A stretch of DNA of 64,000 bases from Candidatus Omnitrophota bacterium. GTDB taxonomy: Bacteria; Omnitrophota; Gorgyraeia; 1-14-0-20-64-10. The notes beneath the pieces are model-generated. The model made no database searches, had not been told where the DNA came from, and worked only from the letters and a program-made list of their open reading frames with translations. This document shows positions 2 to 64,000 of this stretch, in pieces. Where the stretch lies: NCBI GenBank assembly GCA_023248155.1, contig JAHFFE010000004.1, positions 68,248-132,247 on the forward strand, written 5' to 3'. How positions within the stretch are numbered: the first letter of the stretch is position 1; each line of letters starts with the position of its first letter. The position numbers and the translations under genes are program-made.

Positions 2-3000
2 GACTTTGACTTAATCGCCGACGGGAACGCCCATGAATACATTCTGTCCATGAATGACAGCGAACTGTGGAATGGCACCATTACCGGCCTCAAGATCGTA
101 CCCTCGGATGAACCCTCGCACTATGAAATCCTCGGTGCGGCGTCGCGCCAGTCGGTCGATCTTCCGGCCGGGTCCGAATGGGGTCTTTACGGGCCGAAAG
201 AAACCAGCAAGTTCCGCTATGCGGTCGTGGTTGATGGTGTTCAGAGGGGGACGTTCGATGTGCCCTGGAATAAGACGCAGGAGAAAGAAGGCTATGCGGA
301 AATCCAGCTCAACGCTGGTGCTCATCACATTGATATCGTTGAGATGAATTTTTACGACTATCCCTACGCTTCGATGGCGGCATTTAAATCCTATGTGTCC
401 AAGACTCTTGTACGCCGGATTATGCCGGCGGCGGATCTCAACGCGGATAATTATGTGAATGAGGCGGATGCGCGGATTCTGGATACGCTGCGCTCGCGTT
501 TCGAAGCGCCGAACGTTATCGGCCTGCAGGAAGAATTCTTCTCGATTTTGGATAACGGCGACCTGACGCACCGCTTTGTGTCGCGCACGGCGCAGGGCCG
601 CAGTTTTACAAGCGACCCGGCCACGGGGCAGGTCACCATTAATGGCGTCAAACTGCAACTCGGCTATGATGAAGAGCGCGAGCTCTGGCAGGCGTCGCTC
701 TTTGGCCGTGGCAGTGTCAACGTTTATGATCAGGTTCTGCAAATCGGCACTGAGAAAATAGGCGTTACGCGCCGCAAAGACGGCAGTCTTCTTTTCACGG
801 CCTTTGAGCGCACGGAGCCGGTGACTTTTGAATCCGATCCTGCGGCTGAACAAGTCACGATCGGCACGCAGACTTACCGTATTGAACGGGATCCGGAGAC
901 CCTGCAGGTGCGTTTGTTTGAAAGCGCAGAAACAGCGGGGCCCAGCGGCTGGCAGTCAGCCGTGGCCGGCGGCGTTGCCGTGTGGGTGCGGCGCGAAGCG
1001 AGCGGGCTTGTTTTCCGCACCGGCGGCGAAGACCTGGAATTTAACCCGGAAACACGCCGGCTTTCGATCCACGAGAAAAACTACACGCTTTTTGAAAACC
1101 GTCTGGGTCAGCTGACGCTGGTGGAAGTGGATCCGGCTGATCTGGACGGCGACGGCCTTGTGACTTTTGCCGATCAGGCCTTGATGAAAGCCTCGCTGGG
1201 CCGGCAGGCCGCATGGACGCTGGAAGCGATTCAGGCGCGCAATGTCGAAGGCTTTATCCGCGGCCAGCGCAGTGATCAACTGTTTGCGGTCTACGGCAGT
1301 TCGGAAAATTACCGCATGGATTTTGATCTTTTTGCCGACAGCGCCCAGCCGGCGGGGCTTGCTTATTACAACATTATGCTGCGCGCGCAAAGCTATGACC
1401 AAAAAGCCCTGCCCGCCGATTATGAATGGCAGCTTGCCGTCGCTGTTGACGGCGATGACCGCGGCATTGTGATCATTCCCGCGACGGCAGGAAGCGTCTC
1501 CGAGGAAAGCTTGCGCACGCTCATGGCCAACGGTGCGCATACGATCAGCCTGCGCTGGCTGAATCCGCGGCCGGGAACCAGCCTGGCCATCGACCGGTTG
1601 AGGGTCGCCGAAGAAGGCGTTGATCCGGAAGCCAACCTCGTGGTGCGTTCCGGAATTCCGGAGCAGGCGATTGGCGTGCAGACCGAACATTCGGGAGCCG
1701 GCGGACAACTCATCTTACGGACAGCGGCGGGGGAAACAGTTATAACAATTCCGGCGCAGATGCCCTGGCCCGGCCCGGATGATTTTTATTGGGCGGAAGT
1801 GGATGAAAATACGGGCGCCATTCTGCGCCAGGGTTCGCTGCGTTCCGAAGATGCAGACGAAACCGCGCAATTCCTGCTGGATGTGGAAACCCTGCCGGAA
1901 GGCCGCATCCTGGCCGCGGCTTCCTGGGACGGTTTGACGGTGACGCCGTCTTTAGCGCGCGCGCTGGAACGGCTGGGTTCAAAACTGATTCGCAGCATGG
2001 ATGGCGCGCATGAATGGGCTTTTGCCGGCGTCAAAGGACTCCCTCCAGGCAGTGCTTCGGAACAGATTCAGGCGTTAACTACGGGTGACAGCCGTTTGGA
2101 TTTTGATCTGGCCATAACCGGCGGCAGCCTTGAAGACCGCCTGCGGATCAACGCGGCGGACTATGCCGTCTTCCGCCAAGGCATGAGCGACACGGCTGAG
2201 ACTCAGGTCTTTACGCTGCAGGGCAAGGATTATTATGTCAGCGAAACTTCACCGGGAACTTTTGAAGTTTTTGACGGAATTTTGACGAGCGTGCAAAAAA
2301 TCGTGGACGGCCGTCCGGCGCTGGATCTGGGCAGCCGGAGTTTCTTTGTGGAGCGCGGCGTGAACGGCGCTATCCGCCTTGAGGGCATTCTTACCGGCGA
2401 TGTTTTTAGCGACGGTCAACTCGACGGCGCAGATCAGGACTTGCTTGCGGCCAGCCGCGGCCGGTTCAGTTTGGACCGCCGTGACGGCACCGTGATTTTC
2501 AACGAAAGCCAGCCGCTGGTTTATGCCGTCGAAGTGCCGGAAGACGGCCTGTATTCCGTGGGCCTGGCGGCGCGCAATTTCTTCAAGGCAGGCCTGGATT
2601 GGCAGATCGAAGTGGACGTCTATGTGGATGATGAGATTTATCCGCGGACTTCATTTGACGTGCCTGCCGGCCTCAAAGACACGGCAAATTATGTCAATGA
2701 CCTCGATTTGACGGCCGGAGCGCATACGATCCATTTTTACGTGCGCGACCTATACGGCGAGGGCGACCACATCACGCAGAATCCGCATCCTGATCTTGCG
2801 GACCAGCCGGCCGGAGTGGGTTCCGCGCTTCTAGCCGAAAATTTTATTTTCCGGGCGCAGGGTTACCGCAGTGACATGGATCTTAACCACAATCAAAGCA
2901 TTGACACAGGCGATGAAACGATTCTAGCGGGCTTGATTCTGGCCGGGCCGGTCAGCGTGCAGACGCTCGAGCCCCTGCCCGTGAAAGTCCTGCGTCTGGC

Positions 3001-6000
3001 CGGCAAGTTTTACCGGGTCGAAATTTCCGGCACTGCCGTGACGCTGGTCTCCGGCAGTGAAAGCATCACTACGGCCGTGGATGAAGTGATTGAGAAGAAC
3101 GGCGTGTATTACCGCCTGCTGCAAGATGCCGCCGGCGAACTGGCCTTGGCGCGGGAACCGTCCGTCTACGCGTTCCGCGATCCTGCGTTTGAATTCGGCG
3201 CGAGCCGGGCGCTAGACCGTCCTGTTGTTTACGTGCGCGGCCGTTATCTGGAAATCGATCGGGCACCGGACGGCCGCTGGCGCTTTAGCGATGCGGTTGG
3301 CGAATTCCTGTCCAATAGCGAAAAAACCGAAGTTCTGATCATCGACAAGCTTTTCAAAATCCAGGGCGCTCAGGCCGGCGAATTGTCCCTTGAAGAAGTC
3401 CACGCCGAAAGCCTGAAAACGGTGGATTTGGTGATCAATCTAACGGGGGAAGACTACAAGGTCCAGCGTGAAGGCAGCCAGTGGCGTTTTATCCTCGCGA
3501 CGAATGCGGCCGTGAGTTATCTCTCCGTCGACGGTGTGGTCACGATTCAAGACAGACCCTACGCCTTGCGCTGGGATGATCAGCTTCAAGAGTTAGTTGC
3601 GGGCAATCACCCTGTTATTTCCAGTGATCTGGCCGGCCAGTCGGTGGTGCTCGACGGAGTGCTCTATACGATTCGCATGGATACGGCCGATTCGATCAGC
3701 CTGCTGGGTGAAGGTCCGGATGCGCTCGCGGGCGGGACTGTCCCCGGAAACCTTACGCTGGCAGGGGCGGTTTATGCGGTCGAAAAACTCATCGACGGCC
3801 GTTATGTTTTCTCCGGTCAGGTGCAGAGCCGGCCGGCGGAAGAACCCATCCGGTTGTTTGACGGCAAGTTTTACAGCGTGGCGCATGACGGCGAGTATTT
3901 TACGCTCAGCCAAGGCGGAAAGAATTATTCCAATCGTCCGCGTTTAGCGAATTTGCCGGAAGTCGCATCGACCGGTGATTTAACCGCGTTTGAATACTTG
4001 AAAGACGGTACGGTGCGGCCGGAGATCAGCGATGTCTATGACTCTCAATCCGGCACGCTGACGTCCGGCGTTTTTACGGTTCCGGGGGATCAAAACTATA
4101 CGTGGACCTGGGAAATGGCCGCGGGCGGCGAGAGCGGTACCCTGAAAATTCTCAATGCATCCGGAACCGCTGCCCTGCAAGAAACCATCAGTGAATCCAT
4201 GATGTCGATGCCGGGCGGCTGGACTTTAAATTTTCTCAACCCGTTTATTTCGGGCAAGCATGCCGGCTATAAAGTCAGCTACAACACCGGAACGAATACG
4301 CTTACTCTCACGCCCGCCGGCATCACCGGCAATTTTACCGCGCCGGATGGAACGGCTTATCTTTGGGGCCTGACGCGGCATGAGCGCAAAGACTCCGGAG
4401 GGCAGCCGGATACGCTCAATGACGGTTATGTTTTCCGCCTGAGTCAAGCCGGCGGGACGGGCCTTTATGAAAAAACCGGTATCGTTGCGAAGTCTCAAGA
4501 ACTGAATGCGGATTTCACGGGTCTTGTTCAAATGGCCGGCTCGGGCTGGATGGTGCATCTGGATGAAAACAGCGGCAAACTGCGTTTTGATCCCAAGCAT
4601 TCGAGCGGGAGTTTCATTTCGGCTGTGGACGATGAGCGCTACATCTGGTCGATCGATTGGACCCAGACCGGAGAATTTATGAAGGGGTGGACCTTTACGC
4701 TGGAGGATGAGGCCGGCGTCAATACGTTTACGCGTTCCGGTACGCTGAACAGTGATCCGACTTTGGCGATGCCTGAGACGTTTCCACAGCCGTTTGAGGG
4801 TGTTTACGCGCTCGCGAATGCCGTGGAATATCAAATCAGCTTTGATCCGCAGACGAACCGTATGACCCTGGCGCCGCAGCGCGTGCTGGTGGAAGAAAGT
4901 TCTGACCGGATTTTGATTGACGGGCGCTGGTTTGCGATCAGCGGGACGGATACCGGCAGTCTTGTGCTGACGAATGAAATTTTGGAAGAGGCCGGTCAAT
5001 ACCGTTTAGCCGGCGAGCGTTATGCCCAGCAGGTTGAAACGAGCATGAACGAGATGGGTTTCCCCGGGCCGCAGGTGCTGGTGCTGACGGATGAAAACGG
5101 CCGGCGCTTTGAAAGCGTTTTGAATACCACATCCGCCGCGACCGGCCAATACGGGTATAACGCCTATGGTTACTGGGGGCCGATGTATCAATACACCCAT
5201 ACGTACACGGTCACGATCAAAAACATGACGTTTGAAGTGCGCCTGCCGCCCTATGATCCCTACGACTCCAATCCGCCGCCGCTTGAAAATTATACGCTCG
5301 TGCCGTATCAGGCCGCGGCCGTAACGGCGGTTGTGCCGGCGGGGACGCTGGTGAAAATCGGCGGCGCAATTTATGCGATTACCCCCAAGCCGGGCGTTGA
5401 AAATGTCTACCTGATTAGCGACGGCCAAACGCTGACGGAAGCTGGGCTTGGCGAGCCGGTGCGTTTGAATGGCATCGAATACGTCATCCGCCGCGCGCCT
5501 TCCGGAGCGCTCAGTATGATCCAGCAGGTGCAAACGCTGTCCGGGCACCAGGTGATTTTGGAAGGTGTCCGGTATTCGGTCGAAGAGCAGACGGGCCGGG
5601 TCATTCTCTCCGATGGTGTTCAGTCGTTTGAGTCCGATGACGCCAAAGCGAAGATTACGGTCAAAGACCGCCTTTATGATCTTGTGCGCACGGAAGCCGG
5701 CGCCCTGGTGCTGGTCGAATCCGGCGTGGTCCGCTCGTACCAAACCCTGGTTTTCCAAAATAAAACCTACGATGTCCTGCGCAATAGCGACGGTTCGATT
5801 TCGCTGCTCTATCACAAGGCAACGCATGGCACGTTGGCGCCAAAAGAATCCGTCCAGATGCCTGCGCAATTGCGCTATAAAGGCGGAAATTACACCGTGA
5901 GCACGCTGGAAGACGGCCGGCTTCAGATCGAAGGTCCCGAAGGTGTTTCCACCAGCGCGGCGGAAACGGGCCTGATTGATTTTGACGGGAAACTCTGGCA

Positions 6001-9000
6001 GGCCGTGCGGCTTGCGGACGGCCGCTGGACGATTGAGGGAACATTCGAAAGCGCTCCGGCCTCCGGCCAACCGCTGTTTTTTGACGGAAAGATTTACACG
6101 CTTGCCATGCAAGCCAATCAATTCGTGCTTTCCGACGGACGCGCTCACTATACGGCGGATGTCTCGGGTTTTGTGAATTTGAACGGCCGCACGTTCTTCT
6201 GGAGCGGGACCGGGCTGGAGGATTTCCAGATGTTCAACCGGCCGTATCTTGGCAGAACCGATACGGAAATCCAGCTTGAAGGTTTGAACCTGGCCTATCA
6301 GATTGAATATTCCATGATGACGGGCCCGGTCCTTAAAATCACGGATTCTGAACGCAATGCGGTTTATACCAGCTTTACGGATCAAACCAGGGCCTTCATG
6401 GATATCCGGGGCGTTCGCTACGAGATTACGGGCAGCTTGTATGACAGCTTCGGCGAGGGGTTTGGCCTGCGGCCGGCCGCCGGAAACGTGCCGGCTTCTG
6501 CGCCCGCCGAGGAAGGAACCCGGCTTGTGGTGGAAAACCGCATTCTCAGCGTAAGCCTCAAAGCGGGCACCGGCGATATCTATCTGGCGTCCGACGGTAC
6601 GGAGACGCTGGAAGTCCGGCTCGGTGAGACGCTCAACGTCAACGGCCTTCCTTATATGCTTAGTCTGCCAGCCTCCGGCGAACTCAAATTCAGCCTGAGC
6701 AGCCGCCAGATCAGTCTGGCGCAGTTGGGGCTGGATTCGACGTCCTATCTGGCTTTTGAAACCGCGGCCGGCGAATGGGCCTTCCAGGGAACTTACGATC
6801 CCACGGGTGAATTGAGCACAAGCACGGGCGGCGGCACGCTGGTCCAAATCGGCGATCTGAAATATCACATCGAACGCCTCCCTGACGGCGGCCTCAAACT
6901 GACCGAAACCGAAGACAGCGCGCCGGTGGTTTATGAAGATCAACTCTTCCGCAGCGACTTGCAGGCCCGCACGATCCGCATTTCCGGCAAGATCTACCGG
7001 CTCGCACTTGCGGCGGACGGGGACTGGGTCTTGAGTGAAGATTACGAAACTTCGCAGGCCCTGCAGCCGGCGGTGGAAATCGGCGGCCGCAAACTGCAGT
7101 ACCGTTTAGAAGACGCGCAGGTGATCTTGACGGACGGGAAAAACAGCTTCCGCAGCAGCCGCGACGGCTCAAACGTGACGATCGACCATCGCCGCTATGC
7201 GATCCAGCGCAGCGGCAGCGCGATTACGCTTTCCGAGCCGTCTCTGCCGTACAGCCAGACGATCGATGCGCTTGGCGCAATTTGGCTGATCCGCCGCGAC
7301 GCGTCCGGAAAAATCATGGCCGACAATCCCGAAACCCAGGAAACGTTTGCCGGCGATACGGCTGGTCTCGTGATTACGATTCGCGGCGTGCAGTTTGATA
7401 TCACGGGCGAGGAAGGCCGGCGGATTTTCACGCCGCGTATTTCAGCCGAACCCACCCTAGCCGACGGCGCTTTCTTGCTGGCCGGCCGGATGTTCTTTTA
7501 CAAGACCGAAGACGGGCAATTGACCGTGACGTATGCGGACAGCGGGGCCGCGGCCGGCGCAGCGGACGAAAATGCCGGACTGATCGAAATCGCCGGTACC
7601 GTTTATCAAGTGCAGCGCACGAGCGGCCGGCTTGAATTCCATAAGCAAGCCTTTGAAGAAGCTCAGGAAATTTCAGGAGCGGTGTTTTACATCAACGGAA
7701 CGATTTATGAGGTTCAGTATGATGAGACTGCCGGGTCTTTCGAAGTACGCAGCGGCCAGAAAACTTACACCAGCGATCCGGCCACGGGGCATATTTTGAT
7801 CGGCGAAATTGCGGCTGAAATCCGCCGCGATACCGCGAGCGGCGAAATTACGATCACGGTGCCCACAGCAGCCAGCGTCAAGCGCGCCGACCAGGCGGTT
7901 GAACTCAAGGGCCAGATTTATTGGCTGACGCGCCTGGAAGCCGGCCGGTACGAAGTTTATGATCCGGCTGCGAAAACGCCGCATGCGTCCCGCCTTGAAC
8001 AAATTGACGGCGTCTGGCTACCGGTGGTGGATCTGGCCGGCAGTGTTTACCGCGTGGTCGAAGACCGCGGTGAACGCATGCGTCTGGAAGAGGTGACAGA
8101 GGAATTTATTTCCGACGACCGCTTCAAGGTGCTGGCCGGCGGTAAGGAATACACGATCGGCCAGGATTCCGTGGATCAACGTTTCTATCTCGATGACGGC
8201 ACGCACCGTTTCTATGAAACCGGGGTGGATGGCATTATCAAGATCGGCGCTGATTCCTTTAGCGTGCGTGAACTGGCCGGCCGGCGCTTGTTTAATCCGG
8301 AGGTGGTCAAGCGCGCCGATCTGGATCAAAACGGCGAATTCAACGCCGAGGATGCGCGCATCTTGACGCGCCTGGCCAGCCACTACAAAGACATCAACGG
8401 CGACGGTCTGGTCGATCAGCAGGATATTGACGCGTTAAATAAAATTATTGATCTCACGCCTGAGATCCGTGATGCGGTGCCGGATGGTCAGATTACATCC
8501 GATGATTTTACTTCGCTTGACGTCAACCATGACCGCAAGATTGATTACCGCGATGCCAACGCGCTCAACCAGGTGGTGCAGAACCGCTTTGACATCAACC
8601 GCGACGGCCTCACCTCGAGCGGCTCCGGCGTTCCGGCGACGGATGACCTGGCATTTTTCAACGCCCTGTTTAGCCAGATCCGCCAGCTGCAGGCTCAGGG
8701 CATTGTGGTCGAGCCGGCCAAACTAAAAGCGCTGGATGTCAACAATGACGGGCTGGTGACGCATGAGGACGTGACGGCGCTTGGAAAAGTGATCGGCAAG
8801 AATTTCGATATCAATGGCGACGGCAAACTCGATGACCTGGCCAATCGCAAGGATGAAAAACGGCTCGACGATGTGATCAGCGCGCTCGCTTTGAAGATCA
8901 AACAGAACGAATTGACGCTGGCCGATGTGAACCGCAACGGCAAGGTCGATGACAAGGACCGCTCCGACCTTTCGGAATCGATCCGCAAGTATACCCAGCT

Positions 9001-57000: not shown

Positions 57001-60000
57001 CAAGGGCAAGATCACTCAGAATAGGGCAATCGGACTAGCGCTGCGCGAGGGTAAAAACCCCGCTGAGTACTGGGCTGAAGTCAAGGGCCGCAATGCCGCC
57101 GAAGTGCTCATCGAAAGTTTCGTCCAAACGCAGATCTCCAGCGGCAACTACAATAAGTTCGAAGCGTTGACGTCGATAGCCGATCCCGGGACCTCCGAGT
57201 GGGATGTACTCATGGCCCTGGAGAAATTTAGCTTTTCGGATAATTTAGACTTTTATACTAAAAGTGAAGGCGCCGTCACTGTCGATGCTCGCACGGCCGC
57301 CCGCATTCATCTTGCAGCGAAGGTTGGAGGAAACTCTGAAAAATTTGCCGCTGCCATGACGGAGAGAATTCAAGCCGAAAATGAAGCTAAGAATCTTTAC
57401 GCGAGTGGCCGCCTGCCCGTATTGAGAGAAAAAGTAGCGGATAGGGACAGAACGATGAGTGTCAAATCCGCTGATCTTGTGGCGCGTGATTTTGGCGCGG
57501 ATTTTTTTGCGGTGGAACGGACCGACACTCTCAAATCCGGCTGGGTTTCTGGGCTCAAACCTGAAGCCATCAAAGAAGGGGCGAAATTTGAGGACATCTT
57601 CCAGGAGGGAGTAAGAGGCACAGCGCTTGAAGGCTCTAGGGTCAGAGTTTCCGATTGGAAAACGATTTCAGAGACAAAAGCGACCGATGCGATGGCCGCG
57701 GTCAACAAAGCTCTGGACGGTAAGTTTGAGGCTGAAGCGACTGAGTTTATTTTGGCGGTGTTCCAGAGTCATCTTAATTCGTCGATGGCGGCCGGGTTTA
57801 AGGCGGAACTTGCGAAGTATGGCGATAACGATGCTGCCCATGATGCAGTCTATAAACAGCTGGATGCTGATTTTGCCAAAAATAAAGCCAATGTCCGGGC
57901 GCGAGAAATGGTACTTCATGCTGAAAATGTTGCGGCAGAGCGCTACCAAAAATATCTGGATACGCTCGATTCCGCTGCCCGCAAAGCCGAATTGATAAAA
58001 ATCCCCGAGGAAGTCGATGCGGCAGGCGACACACCGGCCGGGATCGCCCAGCGGGCCCGCTGGCTTGTGGGAAGCCGCGAGCTCACCAAAATAAGTGCGC
58101 ATGAAGCCGCGGAGGCCGTAAAAGCCGCCTATGAAAAGGCCACTCCCTTCGAGACGATTGTGGGCGATAAGTTTGAAAATACTCGCGAGGTGTCACATCA
58201 GACCGAGAGTACGCTCAAAGTCAAAACGCTGCCCAAAGAACTGACGGAAAACTCAGCGGGTCACATCGCGGATGCTTTCAAGAATAATCCAGGGGTGCGC
58301 GAAGTAATCCTTGTAACCTTCAGCGAAACCAAACCCAGCAAAATGCTGCCTAAAAATGCTACCGCCGTTCAACATACCCAGCATGCAAAATATGTTGAGA
58401 AAATTGCGATTGTTGCGCTCAAGGATTCCATGCGCCCGGGTGGCACCAAATTCTCCAAAACGGAAGCTCTGGCACTTGAGAAGTTATTGAACTCAGGCTG
58501 CGGAAGCAGCTGTGCTCAAAGGGGTGCGTTCGGCAAAGATCTAAAGAAAGCTTTAACCGAAGCCGGTTTTATTCTGGGTAAGGCCTTGGCTGCGGACAAT
58601 CATAACCTGCTTAGGATCGGCGGCATGGTCGTTCTGCCGGATGACTTGAACGACCTGGATGCGCTTTCAGGCCGGCTGATCGCCGAGGCGCGGAATGACT
58701 TTTCCACGTTCGGAACCGGTGTTCGCGGTATGGAAACCCTGCGCACGGCGGTCAGAGTCTACGACTCGCTTGCGCCGACGGGCCAAAGTAACAGGGCAAA
58801 AGTTTTCTCATTTGCGCAAGCCTACTACCGCGCGGGCGCTCTCTCGGCCGGCACTGAGCAAAATAAACAGCGGCGAACGGCCCTAGACGCTCTGACAAAG
58901 CTTCTGGTGAATGTCCAGGAAAGCAAAGGCAGGACGGTCTCGGCGGCTGAGGCTAGGTCACTGCGTGTCGATGCCTTGGTGATCTTAAGAGCATTTTCCG
59001 GCGAGACGCGTGCGGCGCAGCGCTTAGCGCTTCAAGAGATCGGTGCCTTGGGCAAGGACGGTCTGGTCAAGGGCGGTAATATTTTTAATTGGGCGGAGAG
59101 TAAGATTTCTGAAGCGGATTTTAATAAATTGAGTACAGGTGCAAAAGCGAAGGCGATCGCGGACGGCAAAGTACAGCTCCAGAAAAAAACGGGAATCCAA
59201 TTTGAAAGCTTGACCAGTCTGATCAAAAGCGAATCCGGGGTCCTTCAGCTCGGAACTGCCGGCGGTAAAACCAGCGTGCTGACACCCGGTCTTACCAAGA
59301 TTATGAATCGCCTTGGCGTGCACACCGTCCAGTTTTTCCCCTCCGAGTTCCTTAAGCAGGCCGGTTTTGCGGCTGCCAGCTCGCAAGCGAGCAATACGAA
59401 AAAAATTGATCTGTTGGAGGGCGACATTTCACGATTAAACGGGCGGCTTACTAAAACAGAAGGGGCCGCGCGTCTCAAGCTCCAGGGGGAAATCGAAAAT
59501 CTGGAAGGTCTCAAGTCACTGCTGGAAGCAGGGATGAGTATTGTGGTTTTTGACTCGAAGAAATTTTATAAAGCGGGCGAAACGGCCTATCGGGAGCAAG
59601 TGCTCAAAGCGGATGTTTTGGTCGCTGATTTCAATGATACGAAAAGCGGTCTGTTGGAAGTCCGGTCGACCCGCGATTCGGCGCGCATGAACAACGTCGA
59701 AGCCGTCGGCCGTTATGATGCCGGCTTGCGGCTGCAAGATCGCATTGCGCGTTCGCAGCTTTTAATCGACGAAGTTGACCAATTGGTGGACGTTCCCTCA
59801 ACAACAACGGCGGCCTTTGGCGTTGAAGGCGGCGTGACCAAACGGGCGATTGACGTCGACAAAACCAGCGTGCGTGACGTAGACACGGTCGTCAAGGTCT
59901 TGGTCGACAAAGGCTATGCCAAATTTGAAAATAATAAACTCAAACTGACTAAGACGGGTGAGAGTAGTATTTTTGGAGCAGACGGCCGGGATATTAACGG

Positions 60001-63000
60001 CATTAATTTCAAAACGACCGCTGTGGATGATGTTTTGGGAACACTGGGCTTTGAGAGAAGTTCGAATCGCGGCCAGCAGTTTGCGAAAACGCTGGAAGGC
60101 GTTGCGCAAGGTTTGAAATTTAGCGCGCGTCAGGTGGCCTTCGGTCAAAAAGGTACAAATAAGTTTCATCCGGTCGCTGAAAACGGTGAAACCTCGGTCG
60201 ATCAGGTTTTTGCGGGCGCGCGCCGCGCTGCGGCTTACGATATCGTGGGCCGTTTGCGTGAGGGCATCAGCCATGACGGCATAGGCTCAGCCGTCTACCG
60301 CAATGTCGGCGATGTCGCGAAACTGGTGAATCTGCGCGAGAGTAAAGTTGAAGTCCAGGAAAGCGCGGTCACCGTCAGTGTGGCGGATGCTTTCCGCGAA
60401 CTGCGCAAGCTTGCCGGCGGCAATCTGATGATCCGCGGCTTTTCGGGCAATGCCACGGTGGCGCGCGAGCGTTTGGCACTGAATCTTGGGGTTGATTTTA
60501 TCGGCAAATTCGATGGGATTGAGAATGGCCGGTTCTATACGCTCAAGCAAACGCCGGGTCAAACCGGCTTCCGGCTGCGCAGCAACGCGTTAAACCATAA
60601 TTTCCATGGGACGATTGATGGCGCGCTGAACCGGATTACAGCGACCACCATCAGCCGGAATAAAAATATTTTGATTCAGGATATCACCGGCGAGGGCTAT
60701 AACGCGGTTTGGGATGCAACCGCCCGCAGATTGAGTGATCTGGGCCGCACGGCGACCGATAAAACGCTGTTTGTCGTCATGCTGCCGGAAAAAGGAAGCG
60801 TGGCCGTATTTACCGACTTTGCTGCGTTTAAAGCCAAGGATTTCAGCAAGTCCACGGAAGTGAAGTCAGTCAAGAATAAAATAACCGGCGAGCTTGATCT
60901 TGTAGTGGACATTAAGGGCCAGGAAATACAGTTCAATCGATTGCTGGGCGGCTATGAGGCCGGCAAAGGCCCTTTAGAAGCGCTAGGCTTTGACCGTGTG
61001 GTTGAGATTCAGAGCATGCCCGCGACGCGCGGTACCGACCAGCGCTTTGACGTGCAGAATTCAGCCGGCAAGTGGCAAGCCAATGTCCACCGCATCTTAC
61101 TGGTGGATCGCAATACGACTTTTGACTCGCTTGAGCAGGCCTTGGGCCGTGACCGCGGGTTAGGCAATTTGACGCTCGACCGCGCGACGCTCTCAGACAC
61201 GATTTCCGTGATTGATGCCAACCCCAATGCGCTGCGGGCCGAGTTCAGCAAACTGGGCGGGGGCGACAACGTCATCGGCTTGGTACGGTTCACCCATGAA
61301 ACGCTGCGCGCAAATATCCGCGAAGGCATTCTTAGCGATGGCTTGACCGCCTTGCGCGATGCACCCGGCCGTTTGTTGGGTGAAATTGAGACGGCGTTGA
61401 ATCAAACCTCCCAGGGCGGCGGCTTGGGCGGTGTAAAGGGCGCGGCGAAGGGCGATGTGACGGCGGCTCTGGCCTCTTTTGCGGCTTTGCGGAAGCAGGT
61501 GGAGGCAAAAGGCGATGACCTTACGACAGCCTTCAAGGGGACAGTCAAATCGGACCTAAAGTTCAACGACACCGCCAAGCAGTTTCACCAGTTGACGGTG
61601 GATCTGCTGCGTGGGACGGGAGATTTTAAGGGCACGGGGGTCGACTTGATCAAGGCCCTGGAAAATGCGGGCGCTAAAGAGCTGGCCGGCCGGTTGACGC
61701 GCGATGTTTTGAATGTGGACGCTAAATCGCTTGAGCTTAAGTTTGACGAGGTGACGGGCGCGGTCGAAGGGGCCGGACGCGGCGCCCGTTTCCTGGCCGA
61801 TGCCGATGTGTTTACGGTACGCGATACGGTTCAGGCCTTCCGTAATTCTCTGCATGATCTTTCCACGCGTCAAATTGAAGTCGGCGATAACGTTAAAGGC
61901 CGCACGACGGCTGAAACTTCGGGATTTAAAAGCGCGCGCGATCTTTTGCCGGATTTCACTTCGGCCAATCGCGCGGTGACTGCGGCGGTGCGTGTCGAAG
62001 TGAAGGCAACCGAAGGGTTGGCCCGCACCGAGGTAGGCAAAAAGTTGATTGATGCCTCCAGCGCCAAATATAGCGAGGCTTACCAAAAGACCATTGTAAC
62101 GGAGGTCACGGCAGCCCAAAAAGCGCCGGGCGCTACCGCCGCCACGATTGCTGCAGCCCGTCAAGCGGCCGAGACCAAAGCGGATGAGGCGGGGCGCGCC
62201 GCGTCAGCCACGCGGTTTTATGTGCCGAATGCCCATGAAATTCATGTGGAGGTGGGCGGCCAGGTGCTCGTGTTTAATGTGGCTGATCCTGGTGCCGTTG
62301 CCGCTGCCAATCAACTCGATTATGAAACCGCCGCCATGATTCGCAATGCCGTGCCGGCGGGTTCGGTGAATGGATTTGTAAGCGCGCAGTTTGATGTGGC
62401 GGCTAACCAGTTTGTCTTTTCGGCGGATATTTTGACGGATTTTCAATTTCAGCGTTCCGGCACAAAACTGCCGGCGGCAGATTTCTTCCGCCAGATCGTG
62501 ACCCCGCAGACCCAGCCGGGGACCAGCGGCTTCGCGAACTTTAATCGCGTTGATTTTGGCGCGACTGCGGATACTCGCAGGACCAGCCTGGAGAAGCATT
62601 TGGCGGCTCTAGCGGCTGGGAAAATCCCGTCGGCTCCCGGCATCGATGGGACAACTTTGCCTCACCAAACGCTGGTCTTGCCCGATACGGACACCGTGAT
62701 TGACGTGCCGAATGTGGGCGCTATTGCGATTAAGGGCGGGACTAAGATTTTTGTTCATGCGGATGGCACGGTGAGCATTCCGGCCGGCGCATTTGCCGAC
62801 GATGATTTTAGAATCCCGGGATTCAAGTTAATTCCGACGGCGGATGCGGCGATTGTGGTGCGCGCAACCGGGGCAACGGTTCTACGGTTAGGGCCTGGAA
62901 CGCAGTCGTCTTTTGATTTTGGCGGGGTTGCCATTCCGAATCTGCCGGAGGGGACTGAAATTGAATTTATTAAAAATACCGTGAGTGCCATTAATTTACC

Positions 63001-64000
63001 CGCGGAATCTTCTGTCTCGATCACAGTGGCGGGTACAAGATTCACATTGCCTCCCAATACCCGGATTATCCCAAGCGACATTCCACAACAAACCCAGTTT
63101 GAGCTTCCGGACGGCCGGGTTATGGTGGTTAAAATTGATGCGGTGACTAAAAAACCCGTGCCCGTATTGGCCAGCGTCAATCTGCCGGACTTTGCAACCG
63201 TCGATACGGTCTGGGTGACGGATGCCGGCGCCATTAAAACATTCCGCAAAGTGGAAACGCCCGTCAATATTGACATTGGAACCCGCAAAGTGATTCTGCC
63301 GGCGGGCGTTTTTGTAGAAACCGATCTCGCCGGAAAAATTCTCCGGATCGCGATACCTGAAAATGTAACTTTAACTACTGCCCAGCTGCCGGCCCTGACC
63401 ATTCTTCAGAAGCAAGGCGTGAAGGTTGTTTCTGTCCACGGCGTCGATGACAAAATAGGAACTGTGACTGCGATTCGAGTGAACGCCTCAAGCTTGGACC
63501 TGGATGATTTGAATGTCATCCAAAGCCTGCAAGCCACAGGAGTGAACGTGTCTTTAGTCCGTCTGCCCGCAGACACGCGTCTGGATATTAACATTCCGCC
63601 AAGCCTGGCGGGTCTCAACGACGCGCATCTGGCTGCGCTGGAAACGCTTCAGGGGCTTGGAGTGCCATATCAACTCAGCGGTGCTTCGGGCAGTGTGCAT
63701 TTGACGCTGACGACTATTCCACCCGGGTTAAACCTTGTCGAACTGTCTGAGGCCGGCTTGGATGTCCGCGTCAACCTGACAAAAATTCCTGACAAAAGCC
63801 AATGGAGTGATCAGACAGCGAAGGCGTTTAAAGCGGCCGGTGGAAAACTGATTGTGAATCTCGGCTCTTTGAATGGTGTGTCGCTTGCTGATTTGCGTGA
63901 CTTTGCCGCTCGTGATGCCGGAACAATCAATTTGAATCTGATTCAGATTGACGCAAGCTCTTTTGTTGCGCTGGCAGATCTTTCGGGAACAAAAAATATT
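2..64000 (+). CDS. Internal fragment of a single giant ORF (21,333 in-window codons; 5' and 3' ends outside window) encoding a multidomain, probably cell-surface/membrane-associated giant protein
   Basis: I translated frame +2 across the whole window (2-10,150; 10,150-35,700; 35,700-48,000; 48,000-64,000) and met no stop codon. No + ORF in the supplied track has start mod 3 = 2, so frame 2 has no stop; otherwise an ATG(50)-to-stop ORF would be listed. Coding-like codon usage with GC-rich third positions (ctg, gcc, ggc, ccg) throughout. Recognisable protein motifs run collinearly along the frame. First in-frame Met is at nt 50, but there is no upstream stop, so it is not a start. Confidence 0.9.
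212..2760 (+). repeat. Three tandem ~400-aa globular modules sharing a conserved core [YW]-x-[LV]-x-V-x-VDG...(V/I)P...AGAHTI-x-[LF]
   Basis: FRYAVVVDGVQRG...LNAGAHHIDIVEMNFYDY at about nt 212-360. YEWQLAVAVDGDDRG...MANGAHTISLRWLNPRPG at about nt 1418-1580. DWQIEVDVYVDDEIY...LTAGAHTIHFYVRDLYG at about nt 2596-2760. Spacing is about 1,200 nt (400 aa). Beta-rich composition, possibly carbohydrate-binding-like. Confidence 0.5.
2950..8290 (+). repeat. Array of about 35 degenerate ~30-36-aa beta-hairpin modules with consensus [VIL]-x-[VIL]-x-G-x-x-[YF]-x-[VIL]-x(4-6)-G-x-[VIL]-x-[VIL]; predicted beta-solenoid or beaded beta-sandwich stalk
   Basis: Examples read in frame: LRLAGKFYRVEISGTAVTLV; VVLDGVLYTIRMDTADSISLL; ITVKDRLYDLVRTEAGALVLV; LFFDGKIYTLAMQANQFVLSDG; IRISGKIYRLALAADGDWVLS; IEIAGTVYQVQRTSGRLEF; FYINGTIYEVQYDETAGSFEV; VELKGQIYWLTRLEAGRYEV; VLAGGKEYTIGQDSVDQRFYL. 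Confidence 0.6.
8310..9265 (+). repeat. Dockerin type-I-like / EF-hand-like Ca-binding repeat array 1 (about 9 copies of D-[VIL]-[ND]-x-[DN]-G-x-[VI]-[DN]-x-x-D with following helix)
   Basis: ADLDQNGEFNAEDARIL; DINGDGLVDQQDIDALNKII; LDVNHDRKIDYRDANAL; FDINRDGLTSS; LDVNNDGLVTHEDVTALGKVI; FDINGDGKLDDLANRKD; ADVNRNGKVDDKDRSDLSESI; ADINNDGRVDDRDWRTLEQGL; DVNEDGRIDSKDSEVLERYL. Confidence 0.7.
9300..10860 (+). repeat. Second block of the G-x-x-Y beta-hairpin modules (about 13 copies)
   Basis: IVEIGEHIYDIYEDPDGKIRLV; VIRLGEREYDAYFKDYGRFEF; VIELEGKRYEVVNHFDGSYTF; VKLDGIYYDIHEDPLTGHVQL; VTIRGRVYDVIENSYSGSITL; VIELNGKNYFVRENTQDGITEF. Confidence 0.55.
10880..11450 (+). other. Concanavalin-A-like / LamG jelly-roll domain (DUF1080-like, 3-keto-disaccharide-hydrolase-type lectin fold)
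   Basis: WQDASIDFTKDKMPQGWAPETGSWRIMAGRAESLVQ...TDFTLSVDLSFEI...WEGSVLFNV...YAARLFERGG...YRMQIRVESGKITLAMNDQPLLEAQDHYFTGGAVALAGKGRDVQFDNIVLH. The start (W..G.W....G.L), middle and C-terminal GG-x-[IV]-[AG]-L...-x-V-x-F-[RD]-N-I motif are laid out as in DUF1080/LamG domains. Confidence 0.5.
11641..11780 (+). other. Gly-rich flexible acidic linker
   Basis: AQGGTAGLGASGGEGEGSFAGGESAGGGAGMPAGGETGAGSGTSYQVSEDEG. Confidence 0.7.
11850..13830 (+). repeat. Dockerin/EF-hand-like Ca-binding repeat array 2 (about 18 copies, ~22-37 aa period)
   Basis: VDITGDGRGDIADIKRIQ; ADVTGDGKVTDADWKAIE; SDVTQDGVTDYRDVEAI; ADLNHNGALDAADVAQL; LDLDFDGKIVLADELAAF; ADIDQDGLITPADLRIYEKL; FDLTNDGVVDGSDEQRMVDLL; GDINRDGITDSRDLDLYTLI; ADVNGDGLIDEKDLARAREV; FDLNQDGKVDDSDLAALMTAI; HDVNADGAVNQTDVDLFDRMI; ADIDHSGAFDAGDVTNF; RDVTGDKRLDSADLLAV; ADLTRDNVIDSADSAFLAQAI; ADIDQDNLIGARDYAGLL; ADVTGDGKVDANDLKDLRRLV; ADVTRDRKVDVADVTKVIESV; FDITGDRMVNALDEQALFF. 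Confidence 0.7.
14282..14323 (+). repeat. In-frame palindromic element copy 1: CAGGGACAGGTCC-16 nt-GGACCTGTCCCTG (perfect 13-bp inverted repeat), encoding QGQVQPGTQPDLSL
   Basis: Read directly from nt 14282-14294 and 14311-14323; the arms are exact reverse complements. Total length 42 nt, a multiple of 3, starting on a codon boundary. Confidence 0.8.
16280..16360 (+). repeat. In-frame palindromic element copy 2: CAGGGACAAGTCC-55 nt loop-GGACCTGTCCCTG (12/13 complementary); loop contains a 21-nt imperfect direct repeat GGTCCAGTTAGC[CG]GCTCA
   Basis: nt 16280-16292 and 16348-16360, encoding QGQVQLAAQVPGTQGEVQLAAQMDLSL. 81 nt, a multiple of 3, on a codon boundary. Confidence 0.75.
16766..16803 (+). 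repeat. In-frame palindromic element copy 3: CAGGGACAGGTCC-13 nt-GGACCTGTCCCT (12-13 bp stem)
   Basis: nt 16766-16778 and 16792-16803, encoding QGQVQTTQQDLSL. 39 nt, a multiple of 3, on a codon boundary. Confidence 0.75.
24146..24580 (+). other. C39-like (bacteriocin-processing peptidase / papain-fold) domain, probably a non-catalytic 'C39-like domain' variant
   Basis: About 145 aa: KYLSEQSLHFGISAFTALSFML...(about 70 aa)...LPAIIHLDGDHFAVLEKADAENVTVREYTGDSFALSVAEFVKHWDGFVMS. The C-terminal block matches the C39 signature G-x-HF(V/A)VL...DP/E...(F/L)...W-x-G-x-(V/L). The N-terminal Q-x(5)-[DC]G motif is present, but the position of the catalytic Cys (DCGxAAL) is occupied by HFGISAF, so there is no Cys. 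Confidence 0.5.
25444..25770 (+). repeat. Dockerin/EF-hand-like Ca-binding repeat cluster 3 (4 copies) plus an isolated copy at about 27,250-27,300 (LDTDGDVDYDDLNVLKT)
   Basis: ADVNRDGSVTAADVTALNLAM; DDINLDGVVDLLDKAIWQQLL; GDVDADSQLDSDDVSLFRSYL; VNVDQDPAGLVDSSDVLAVSNYV. Confidence 0.6.
27560..28050 (+). other. Small beta-rich globular domain inserted in the helical region
   Basis: RISGELDRAAAPGTYNQVAVSFAAPMPEFRVGTTTFKFPFHLRIGNEIFGMRAGDHTVTPEIMNQAFTFYKLYDVVDVTLPDGSIIGYNQPVTTLAAMNPFVSYYDIPTGEHRVNVGPITYRLDEGLTGLWLRLE. The composition changes abruptly to aromatic- and Pro/Gly-containing beta-type sequence. Confidence 0.4.
32100..35700 (+). other. About 1,200-aa Pro/Thr/Asn/Gly-rich beta-type globular region (several domains), with a Cys-bracketed loop (LCQGPTVPPVCQ, nt 34351-34395)
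   Basis: VIPAGFPIQNNTVYEWFPAPATPPAVTPKWYDLQAGSINFSAPASNFVPGQAYVIMRYVKHP; KLYLYLPVHVGEIFADVNGDGYLGLETDPELMVWQDGQLVDIKARD; TFEGDTVNYNVLKHVEVTYELENGETFTSRGETTGFVSD. Confidence 0.4.
35700..43550 (+). other. Mixed region: predominantly charged alpha-helical/coiled-coil segments with small interspersed globular inserts. Includes an E/R/K-rich single-alpha-helix-like stretch at nt 41341-41470
   Basis: For example LEEEAAIRDAEIAGNLAKVQALLAAYNTANANSDLSQADKDRAYQLWKSAREQLNELYIQRFG; FQALEEEKQRRRLEKEAEVRLRNQLKDLAKKPAEIKFQMEKF; DLAALRSQMSETDSQISGINLKISELEETYKRIGG. Small beta/Cys-containing insert at 38,700-38,930 (LCPAGSTDDEIDIDCVRRDSKGKIMTDIHGNVMYIPFEKNAVGYVEG). Confidence 0.4.
45098..45960 (+). repeat. 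Tandem duplication of a ~145-aa module: FTWGQDF-x-F...FKCHIN-x-AGGCDV-[ST]-D followed by thrombospondin-type-3-like acidic Ca-binding loops (D/N-x-D/N-G-N-x-x-LD-P-x-ED)
   Basis: Copy 1, nt about 45098-45530: NFTWGQDFVFTVRG...FKCHINAAGGCDVSDP...TEDRDGDGLLDGSEDANGNNVLDPGEDTLPFNGVLDPSEDTNGNAALDQ...HGTLVLEGDEV. Copy 2, nt about 45533-45960: FYFTWGQDFEFSYLW...FKCHINVAGGCDVTDL...DEDRPALLFPNGNDLLDPSEDINNNGILDLGEDIFAPIGVLNLAEDINQNGRIDV...RGTLILRRNEIV. Period 436 nt. Nucleotide identity is visibly partial, e.g. tttaaatgccatatcaa[tc]g[ct]ggc[tc]ggcggctg[tc]ga[ct]gt. Confidence 0.7.
46019..46232 (+). repeat. YD/RHS-like repeats (2-3 copies)
   Basis: TSYTDSEGRRLKAVDAFGNVTRYFYRRDPLSGAVLTDVRTGQPLETYVLDANNNITILGAEGERLAFIDF. 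This follows the YD-repeat pattern G-x-x-[TS]-x-Y-x-[YT]-D-x-x-G-R-L-x-x-V-x-D-x-x-G-N-x-T-x-Y-x-Y. Confidence 0.45.
48000..55190 (+). other. About 2,400-aa mixed alpha/beta globular region of unknown function (several domains). Includes a hydrophobic/Gly stretch (nt 48361-48466) and a Gly6 hinge (nt 53344-53364)
   Basis: For example NIVNTIVYSAAVMATNIWGGGGLGAASMDGALIAP; KFLYGGGGGGLAKTNN; HALMDGDYQYSATADVSDNKVLS; KIKTTLKIDGVKTTLGFIYDEVTETYTDLEGKPLTGKGLGDKWLIDGLLDGTLSITILDEADGLEGEISGPL. Confidence 0.3.
55195..56930 (+). other. Polytopic membrane segment: about 10-14 predicted transmembrane helices, Gly/Ala/Phe/Leu-rich with many small-xxx-small motifs
   Basis: Hydrophobic runs of 18-25 aa separated by short polar loops: TAGTILAWTLGLGLLALAAFFLVPLAGAFIAAGGILWGIFAAGAVLFAGTAFVAAVAGLWMGASLG; YLINFAMTLMLSAGIGSSSFAV; AFLIEAAISVFAGAAAQLFFFMW; GMNGFLFFIVMSALFGPTAI; LDFLIIQGGAGLLIRFAAQWIP; AGAFILKAASIAFIRLPTILVNYLISAVGQGIGWAAFGVVLTAIG; VWTFFTSLGSGFLAVGSALYQFLGTLLWSPFALF; LNGFLIGNLFTIFGPSVTGGFGRFLAGL; VEAWFMALISKIGLGGLMRLG; GVFGLLQLPFISHFSGLLLNPITFLGSAFFVEHIVPFLG; LVLQVALLFGVTGLL; NLFFFLLP. 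Confidence 0.65.
59200..61200 (+). other. SecA-like / SF2 DEAD-type ATPase motor domain (two RecA-like lobes) embedded in the giant protein
   Basis: Collinear motifs in frame 2. Motif I (Walker A) LQLGTAGGKTSVLT at nt 59252-59275 (SecA: EMKTGEGKTLVAT), followed by GVHTV (SecA: GVHVV). Motif II LLIDEVDQLVD, with DEVD at nt 59768-59779 (SecA: VDEVDSILIDEA). Motif III IRGFSGNATVARE at nt 60437-60457 (SecA: LAGMTGTADTE). Motif V QSMPATRGTDQ at nt 61016-61042 (SecA: TNMAGRGTDI). Motif VI SLEQALGRDRGLGN at nt 61130-61168 (SecA: NQLRGRSGRQG). The DEVD and RGTD variants are characteristic of SecA rather than generic DEAD-box helicases. Confidence 0.6.
62700..64000 (+). other. Beta-type tandem modules followed by a Leu-rich-repeat-like segment; continues beyond window
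   Basis: IKGGTKIFVHADGTVSIPAGAFADDDFRIPGFKLIPTADAAIVVRATGATVLRLGPGTQSSFDFGGVAIPNLPEGTEIEFI... then LDLDDLNVIQSLQATGVNVSLVRLPADTRLDINIPPSLAGLNDAHLAALETLQGLGV...LNLVELSEAGLDVRVNLTKIP...LIVNLGSLNGVSLADLRDFAARDAGTINLNLIQIDASSFVALADLSG, which has LxxLxLxxN periodicity. Confidence 0.35.

Follow-up and report, generated by a model that had tools for sequence, protein, structure and literature searches.

A stop-free 64-kb reading frame with the architecture of a Dockerin-type giant surface protein

The 64,000 nucleotides analysed here (hereafter the window) are positions 68,248 to 132,247 of the forward strand of contig JAHFFE010000004.1 (assembly GCA_023248155.1), and they lie wholly within one open reading frame (ORF) of which neither the start nor the stop is in view. 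This frame is a real giant coding frame, and the window is probably an internal fragment of a genuine gene of more than 64 kb for a membrane-anchored, calcium-dependent surface scaffold or adhesin of the Dockerin-type giant kind. A preliminary description, made from the sequence alone, had reported collinear modules along the frame, and the order that it gave, dockerins followed by a C39-like domain, a transmembrane (TM) cluster and ATPase-type motifs, was seen again here.

One continuous coding frame

nt 2-64000, plus strand: interior of one ORF of 21,333 codons (no stops; uniform codon-position GC periodicity and codon usage)

A stop count over the 64-kb window detected no stop codon in frame +2, whereas the other frames contain 1141 (+1), 786 (+3), 263 (-1), 769 (-2) and 941 (-3). 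Base composition predicts ∼829 stops per frame, which places the log10 probability of observing none at about -367. The preliminary description had stated that frame +2 has no stop between nt 2 and 64000, that its first in-frame ATG is at nt 50 and that the visible protein is of about 2.3 MDa; all three statements were reproduced, the mass of the visible translation being computed as 2.32 MDa. GC content at the first, second and third codon positions (GC1, GC2 and GC3; ∼0.6, 0.42 and 0.65, respectively) forms a coding pattern that is constant in 22 of 22 three-kb tiles, relative synonymous codon usage is correlated among all eight 8-kb segments (r = 0.88-0.98), and the amino-acid composition is protein-like, with 0.1% Cys. 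Repeated sequences are scarce. Tandem Repeats Finder returned two trivial arrays and no others, dispersed DNA repeats are limited to three families, each 41-45 nt long, of which two fall in sequence coding for calcium loops and the third is a two-copy match, and self-similarity of the protein is confined to a few module pairs. Because periodicity and codon usage are uniform and DNA repeats are lacking, there is no sign of a chimeric or collapsed-repeat assembly in the window.

Giant ORFs from metagenomes are sometimes misassembled, and GC content falls from ∼0.58-0.60 to 0.53-0.55 near nt 32,000 (nt 28000-36000), as might be expected if several genes had been joined into a chimera, or a repeat collapsed or expanded, in the window, the true locus consisting of several ordinary genes. 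Such an artefact is scarcely credible, however. The GC step lies mainly in GC1, reflecting amino-acid composition (an Ala-rich first half) and not codon bias, GC3 drifts only slightly, and codon usage is still correlated across the step, so that a chimeric join at this position was rejected. The complete lack of stops, the uniform codon usage, the near absence of DNA repeats that could drive a collapse or mis-join and the slight self-similarity of the protein all speak against an artefact; moreover, only one random join in three would preserve the frame, and such a join would not produce the collinear arrangement known from the Dockerin-type class.

The minus strand contains 13 ORFs of at least 250 aa, the longest of 645 aa (for example nt 5006-6943, 48386-49777 and 28811-30025). 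These read as shadow ORFs of the low-stop frame (263 stops) and were rejected as real antisense genes; Pfam searches with four of the 13 produced no match. No RNA genes were found in the window.

Modules of the N-terminal 18,400 residues

The composition of the translation changes in four stretches: a mixed to beta-rich first 4,500 aa, a helix-former-rich 6,000 aa, a mixed 8,000 aa and, finally, a hydrophobic cluster followed by at least 2,388 residues. Pfam matches above the gathering score occur only in the first 40% of the chain. The features that precede the hydrophobic cluster, apart from the C39-like domain treated below, are as follows.

nt 1799-2038 (aa 600-679), plus strand: ILEI-type domain, a small beta-rich module with glycan-binding relatives (Pfam PF15711, E = 3.6e-8, 34.2 bits against a cut-off of 27)
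nt 8384-9259 (aa 2795-3086), plus strand: dockerin cluster 1, with six EF-hand/dockerin calcium loops (Pfam Dockerin_1, E = 1.3e-14 and 1.8e-14)
nt 11273-11437 (aa 3758-3812), plus strand: weak segment resembling DUF1080/3-keto-disaccharide hydrolase (PF06439, E = 0.009-0.011)
nt 11966-13729 (aa 3989-4576), plus strand: dockerin/EF-hand cluster 2, with twelve calcium loops (Pfam Dockerin_1 and EF-hand_7)
nt 13502-31501 (aa 4501-10500), plus strand: helix-former-rich region of ∼6,000 aa (Ala up to 25% and Leu 11-14%, by tile)
nt 25418-25495 (aa 8473-8498), plus strand: isolated dockerin half-module with a calcium loop at aa 8483 (Dockerin_1, E = 5.6e-8, 33.3 bits)
nt 45173-45991 (aa 15058-15330), plus strand: Asp-rich, calcium-binding-looking repeats and a CHINxAGGC disulfide-loop module present in duplicate (DNA repeat families D2 and D3)

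The dockerin-like repeats of the preliminary description are well supported, Dockerin_1 exceeding its gathering score in four tiles and reaching 116.6 bits in cluster 2 (E = 5.6e-34, five stretches, aa 4338-4395), where EF-hand_7 is also matched (E = 3.6e-11, aa 4274-4331). In cluster 1, the Dockerin_1 matches cover aa 2795-2857 and the surroundings of aa 3066, and the calcium loops are at aa 2797, 2840, 2912, 2975, 3042 and 3066. A loop-pattern scan of the whole translation detected 25 EF-hand/dockerin calcium loops vs 0.6 expected by shuffling, clustered at aa 2797-3066 and 3989-4565, and the total amounts to ∼10 dockerin/EF-hand modules. No tile contains a Pfam cohesin match. The DUF1080-like segment scores 16.3-16.5 bits, under the gathering cut-off of 26.8, and is taken as a hint only.

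Besides its dockerin half-module and the C39-like domain, the helix-former-rich region (aa 4501-10500) has no Pfam match; from its composition it might form a long helical stalk. In the part of the translation beyond aa 9,000, no significant Pfam, NCBIfam or PDB sequence match was obtained, and PDB sequence searches with the dark tiles aa 9,001-13,666 and 13,667-18,332 returned nothing. Pfam is likewise silent on the Asp-rich repeats, and TSP3, discoidin (F5_F8_type_C) and GNAT domains had no Pfam match, even at E values up to 10 on aa 14,950-15,449. A word-index search with aa 14,701-16,700 detected relatives for the Asp-rich repeats only, with 23 matches, 17 of which carry PF13229 (Beta_helix); the five that have an organism name are all from Planctomycetaceae/Planctomycetota. 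A non-ribosomal peptide synthetase/polyketide synthase megasynthase was considered and rejected, no such domains being present.

The 26 cysteines of the translation form 13 close pairs, the partners being 4-13 residues apart (e.g., CFDGTENC, CHINAAGGC, and CGSSC), spread over aa 3212-19504 (nt 9635-58513). They resemble short disulfide loops, the protein being otherwise devoid of Cys. Twelve of the 13 pairs precede the TM cluster and one (aa 19500/19504) follows it.

By eye, the module that opens the translation (aa 1-133, nt 2-400; DFDLIADG...VVVDGVQRG...LNAGAHHIDIV) recurs at aa 441-535 (nt 1322-1606; DFDLFADS...VAVDGDDRG...MANGAHTISL) and may be a repeated beta-sandwich or carbohydrate-binding-module-like unit; BLAST self-comparison at 1e-5 did not detect this recurrence.

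C39-like domain

nt 24323-24571 (aa 8108-8190), plus strand: C39-like domain (Pfam Peptidase_C39, PF03412, E = 2.1e-10, 41 bits against a cut-off of 22)

The C39-like domain of the preliminary description is thus also detected by Pfam, the match spanning positions 45-129 of the 133-position profile, and NCBIfam C39-type models match it too. PDB searches gave weak matches to 3b79, the N-terminal domain of a toxin-secretion ATP-binding protein, and to the double-glycine protease domain 6mpz, the latter of which aligns the conserved His retained here as H8149 (within ...GDHFAVL...). Since there is no cysteine anywhere between aa 3220 and 11453, and hence none in the domain, it cannot be an active C39 cysteine protease and, as judged from its residues, is probably non-catalytic. 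In this it resembles the C39-like domain of the RTX-toxin ATP-binding cassette (ABC) transporters such as HlyB, which give the same C39 fold signal and likewise keep the His and lack the catalytic Cys. The HlyB domain is, however, situated at the exporter N-terminus, whereas the domain described here is embedded at ∼aa 8,100, some 10,000 residues from the TM cluster, in a protein that has no ABC transporter domains within the window. A Cys-less C39-like domain is possible within the Dockerin-type class, and for the window protein it speaks against the idea of self-cleavage found in the literature.

An Ala-rich stretch with several moderately hydrophobic segments (nt 21743-24790, aa 7248-8263; 25% Ala in aa 7001-8000) flanks the C39-like domain, the segments including GSDAAILAALVLGLLAASV at aa 7248 and LAQAALAAAGDLVSVLAIF at aa 8242. 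This stretch may be associated with the membrane as a second such region, in which case the C39-like domain would be cytoplasmic.

Probable membrane anchor and charge asymmetry

nt 55220-56836 (aa 18407-18945), plus strand: polytopic membrane anchor of ∼10-13 candidate hydrophobic helices, isoelectric point (pI) 10.0 (Kyte-Doolittle scans)

Hydropathy scans identify aa 18,407-18,945 as the sole strong cluster of hydrophobic helices in the translation, in agreement with the TM cluster noted previously. When this module was modelled with AlphaFold2 as a single sequence, an all-helical, low-confidence structure was obtained, with a predicted local distance difference test (pLDDT) score of 45. The pI is 4.74 for the residues before the anchor (aa 1-18,400; nt 2-55201) and 8.57 for those after it (aa 18,946-21,333; nt 56837-64000), a charge asymmetry that fits an outside/inside split across the TM cluster.

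An acidic, calcium-binding protein with adhesion-type modules could also be a classical, fully secreted giant adhesin, such as a type I RTX or BIg protein, an FhaB/CdiA two-partner passenger or an Rhs/YD toxin, and C39-like domains are otherwise known from the ABC transporters of type I secretion. This is very improbable for the window protein, however, because a polytopic cluster with at least 2,400 further residues behind it is unfit for a C-terminal type I signal or a two-partner passenger. Furthermore, the translation has no RTX GG.G.D nonapeptides, its YD motifs are at the level of chance (1 vs 0.6 expected), Pfam has no match for BIg, haemagglutinin, Rhs or cadherin, and there is very little internal repetition.

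The C-terminal ATPase-type module and its possible relationship to SecA

nt 59231-61171 (aa 19744-20390), plus strand: putative P-loop ATPase module, possibly SecA-like (motif positions, block ranks and local hhalign)
nt 62699-64000 (aa 20900-21333), plus strand: beta-former-rich, Val/Ile/Leu-rich tail that runs off the window (from composition; leucine-rich-repeat-like by eye)

Behind the anchor, the translation contains in succession LGTAGGKTS (aa 19750; Walker A, with K19756), GVHTVQF, ADVLVADFND, LLIDEVDQL (aa 19919; Walker B, D19923-D19926), VEVQESAVTVSV...GFSGNA (aa 20113-20151, the GFSGNA at aa 20146), ATRGTDQ (aa 20341) and ALGRDRGLG (aa 20380, with GRDRG at aa 20382). The module is likely to be a P-loop ATPase. 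The final segment, aa 20900-21333, has no Pfam match.

The succession of motifs is that of SecA, and the likeness to the SecA motor (SecA_DEAD/PPXD/NBD2) extends to the motif forms TxGxGKT, GVHxV, AD(I/V)xxxxxN, DEVD, VE(V/I)Q...T(V/I)...GxxG(T/N)A, RGTD and GRxRG, and to an insertion of ∼190 aa at the place where the preprotein-binding domain would sit. When SecA blocks were ranked along the protein, the Walker B block scored first of 21,324 positions at aa 19919, the Walker A core fourth and GRGTD 11th, with the remaining two blocks ranking 34th-35th or lower. Local hhalign with alternative alignments gave as its two best matches SecA 96-131 and 338-411, which are collinear and correspond to the Walker A/motif Ia and pre-motif III/GMTGTA regions. 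Their summed score of 50.6 was reached by none of 420 column shuffles (maximum 47.7), and the top score alone by seven of the 420. When the translation was divided into 1000-aa tiles at 500-aa steps, with one further tile centred on the SecA-like region, the two tiles containing this region ranked first and second (44.6 and 44.3, vs 42.0).

The preliminary description had named SecA motifs and a motor ATPase. The short motifs are indeed present and in the right order, but standard homology searches all fail to connect them with SecA. Pfam SecA_DEAD (PF07517) has no match in the tail at E values up to 10, phmmer and profile hmmsearch of the PDB with the tail module returned nothing, BLASTP of the tail against Escherichia coli SecA was non-significant (E = 0.38), and hmmsearch --max detected no SecA in the tail. 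The hhalign comparison with a SecA/SecA2 profile of 10 sequences, drawn from plasmid-collection records and E. coli, gave a probability of 0.5% (E = 0.11), and an ungapped chain test with a five-block SecA position-specific scoring matrix gave z = -0.09. The tail further differs from SecA in having no detectable scaffold or wing domain, in retaining four of the seven invariant residues of the Walker A region, and in being fused behind a TM cluster within a giant protein. An AlphaFold2 model of aa 19,700-20,699 from a two-sequence alignment had a pLDDT of 33. SecA ancestry of the module is accordingly regarded as plausible yet unproven, the balance being about even or leaning slightly in its favour.

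Two actinobacterial plasmid-collection records, Mycolicibacterium arabiense pJCM18538 (NZ_AP022592.1) and Embleya sp. (NZ_CP108785.1), contain divergent SecA-like regions that share 24-25% identity with the E. coli protein. The former lies in a hypothetical protein of ∼3,470 aa and is reminiscent of the large SecA-bearing proteins that West-Roberts et al. mention from actinobacteria. An attempt to bridge from the tail module to SecA by way of these two regions failed, BLASTP detecting no similarity between them and the module.

Relatives

nt 59531-61957 (aa 19844-20652), plus strand: segment homologous to protein P0001 (phmmer E = 2.1e-37, 31% identity)

A phmmer search of 1.84 billion representatives with aa 19,500-20,699 returned a single match, P0001, a protein of 1,039 aa labelled SRC (run SRR3989338, a soil read set; local BLASTP E = 7.5e-49). 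P0001 begins shortly before the DEVD motif, keeps the motif blocks of the tail from DEVD onward (alignment A1) and looks like a fragment of a longer protein. Neither a contig encoding it nor a publication on its run was found. Word-index searches of 5.8 billion clusters gave no match for aa 1-2000 or aa 19,550-20,849. Relatives were also absent from genome contigs searched with window peptides and alignment A1, from metagenome contigs searched with the C-terminal 634 aa and a degenerate VEVQxSAVTVSV pattern, and from viral contigs and plasmids (tblastn and megablast). Judged by these sequence searches, the window protein is nearly an orphan. No marker genes lie in the window; its GC content of 56% and the organism-named matches to the Asp-rich repeats are weak pointers toward Planctomycetota.

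Comparison with described giant proteins

The Omnitrophota are a phylum of the PVC supergroup. Dockerin-type giant proteins described from this phylum contain dockerin and EF-hand repeats together with TSP3, discoidin, ILEI, DUF1080, GNAT and C39-like domains, have no or few TM helices over their N-terminal bulk and carry TM anchors close to the C-terminal end, behind which lie SecA-related domains (West-Roberts et al., 2023, bioRxiv 10.1101/2023.11.21.568195); TSP3, discoidin and GNAT are present or common in this class, not universal. The same authors term proteins of at least 10,000 aa large and those of at least 30,000 aa giant. CAILPI010000004_73 is one published member with SecA_DEAD domains, and antiparallel beta-helix tubes and CBM35/dockerin ladders have been described from the class. 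Nielsen and Lui (2026, bioRxiv 10.64898/2026.06.07.730766) included 5,761 proteins with a minimum length of 10,000 aa in their clustering and report predicted lengths of up to 147,155 aa; among the 916 Omnitrophota proteins of this size that they catalogue, 21 bear dockerins (class 3), and Omnitrophota proteins of this size have a mean of ∼22 TM helices. A predicted protein of 85,804 aa has likewise been reported.

The visible part of the window protein, at more than 21,333 aa, is large in this terminology, and its architecture matches the already described Dockerin-type kind, to which it is assigned by published architecture. Shared characters are the giant single ORF, the many dockerin/EF-hand modules, the ILEI domain, the sub-threshold DUF1080-like segment, the C39-like domain, a bulk almost devoid of TM helices, the late anchor followed by an ATPase-like region with SecA-type motifs, and a chain most of which has no Pfam match. 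The preliminary description had placed the gene in the size class of the largest known bacterial proteins, which is overstated in view of the lengths cited above, and could not match its architecture to a described family, a claim that fails given the dockerin-bearing class documented in both studies. Neither size nor architecture is new; a length of more than 21,333 aa, though very large, has ceased to be exceptional. There are also differences from the published Dockerin-type proteins, which are repeat-rich and hard to assemble, whereas the window is almost without DNA or protein repeats. Additionally, it has no Pfam TSP3, discoidin or GNAT domain, its C39-like domain is Cys-less and lies in the middle of the protein, its SecA-like region is under Pfam detection and it has a single TM cluster.

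Two other systems share some of these characters. The Archaeovorin-type giants, of which the type sequence is the Velamenicoccus archaeovorus giant protein, are also encoded by giant membrane-associated ORFs with a C39-like domain and a SecA-like domain reported beside TM regions; however, they carry glycosyltransferases, methyltransferases, glycosyl hydrolases, NUDIX domains and many dispersed TM helices but no dockerins, whereas the window protein has abundant dockerins and none of the Archaeovorin enzyme domains. With the clostridial cellulosomal scaffoldins and dockerin enzymes, it has in common type I dockerins with paired calcium loops, implying surface assembly in the cohesin-dockerin style. 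Scaffoldins consist of cohesin repeats with one dockerin, and the enzymes carry one dockerin each, while the window protein has ∼10 dockerins, no detectable cohesin and a polytopic TM anchor of its own.

The resemblance to the Dockerin-type class could instead be convergent or due to shared domain shuffling, the window then deriving from a new giant dockerin membrane lineage outside Omnitrophota (e.g., in Planctomycetota) with a novel, non-SecA P-loop ATPase. This is judged unlikely, although several observations point toward it: the one relative among 1.84 billion representatives, the lack of matches for aa 1-2000 and aa 19,550-20,849 among 5.8 billion clusters, the failure of every standard SecA test, the restriction of the five organism-named matches to Planctomycetaceae/Planctomycetota, a GC content of 56%, and a single TM cluster where Omnitrophota proteins of at least 10,000 aa average ∼22 TM helices. 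On the other side, the domain order is closely that published for the Dockerin-type, the two collinear hhalign matches coincide exactly with the regions of SecA that hold Walker A/motif Ia and pre-motif III/GMTGTA, and the Planctomycetota matches cover only the short Asp-rich repeat. There is, correspondingly, a minor chance that the window represents the first substantial fragment of an orphan dockerin-giant lineage outside Omnitrophota, possibly in Planctomycetota, whose tail would be either an offshoot of SecA that has diverged to an extreme degree or a new family of P-loop ATPases serving a multi-megadalton surface protein, with P0001 as its sole other member.

Proposed topology and function

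For the preferred assignment to a Dockerin-type surface protein, a simple topology can be proposed. The ∼18,400 acidic residues would lie outside the cytoplasm, tethered by the polytopic anchor, while at least 2,400 basic residues would be retained in the cytoplasm. An external position is suggested for the acidic region because dockerin/EF-hand loops require Ca2+, because 12 of the 13 Cys pairs are found there and because it lacks a strong hydrophobic segment. The ∼10 dockerin modules may then serve for Ca2+-dependent docking of cohesin-bearing partners or binding of surface ligands, the ILEI, DUF1080-like and beta-helix-like modules may bind or process glycans on another cell or polymer, and the helix-rich middle of 6,000 aa may act as a spacer. 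The C39-like domain, lacking Cys, would bind peptide instead of cleaving it. In the weakest step of the proposal, the GGKT/DEVD module in the cytoplasm would be a highly diverged SecA-like ATPase, aiding export or remodelling of the protein or its partners. As the last part of the chain to be synthesised, it could not drive co-translational export of its own N-terminus in cis and would have to act in trans or after translation.

Several points weigh against assignment to the Dockerin-type class and against this topology. The assignment is drawn from architecture, the TSP3, discoidin and GNAT domains described for the class are not found by Pfam, DUF1080 stays under threshold and the C39-like domain is in mid-protein. 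P0001 is the only relative of the tail module among the 1.84 billion representatives, so that no identity of the tail with the SecA_DEAD domain recognised by Pfam in published proteins is detectable; the SecA signal leads the real tiles by a small margin (44.6 vs 42.0). For no segment does an organism-named relative come from Omnitrophota, all being from Planctomycetota. The topology is drawn from hydropathy, charge and domain type, with no signal peptide in view, and the moderately hydrophobic aa 7,248-8,263 could add membrane passes. Finally, both AlphaFold2 models are of low confidence (pLDDT 33 and 45).

Significance

Giant bacterial genes are experimentally uncharacterised, and they raise the questions of the export of a polypeptide of several megadaltons, of its possible cleavage and of its binding targets. 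The window leaves the picture of what giant genes are unchanged, both its size and its architecture having been described previously. Its value would lie in its tractability. The fragment is repeat-poor and therefore easy to assemble and tile, and its predicted layout is simple, with an acidic, Ca2+-binding exterior of huge size, a single anchor and a basic tail in the cytoplasm. It thus offers a convenient test case for asking if the ATPase-like module fused to it truly derives from SecA and what the docking partners of the ∼10 dockerins may be.

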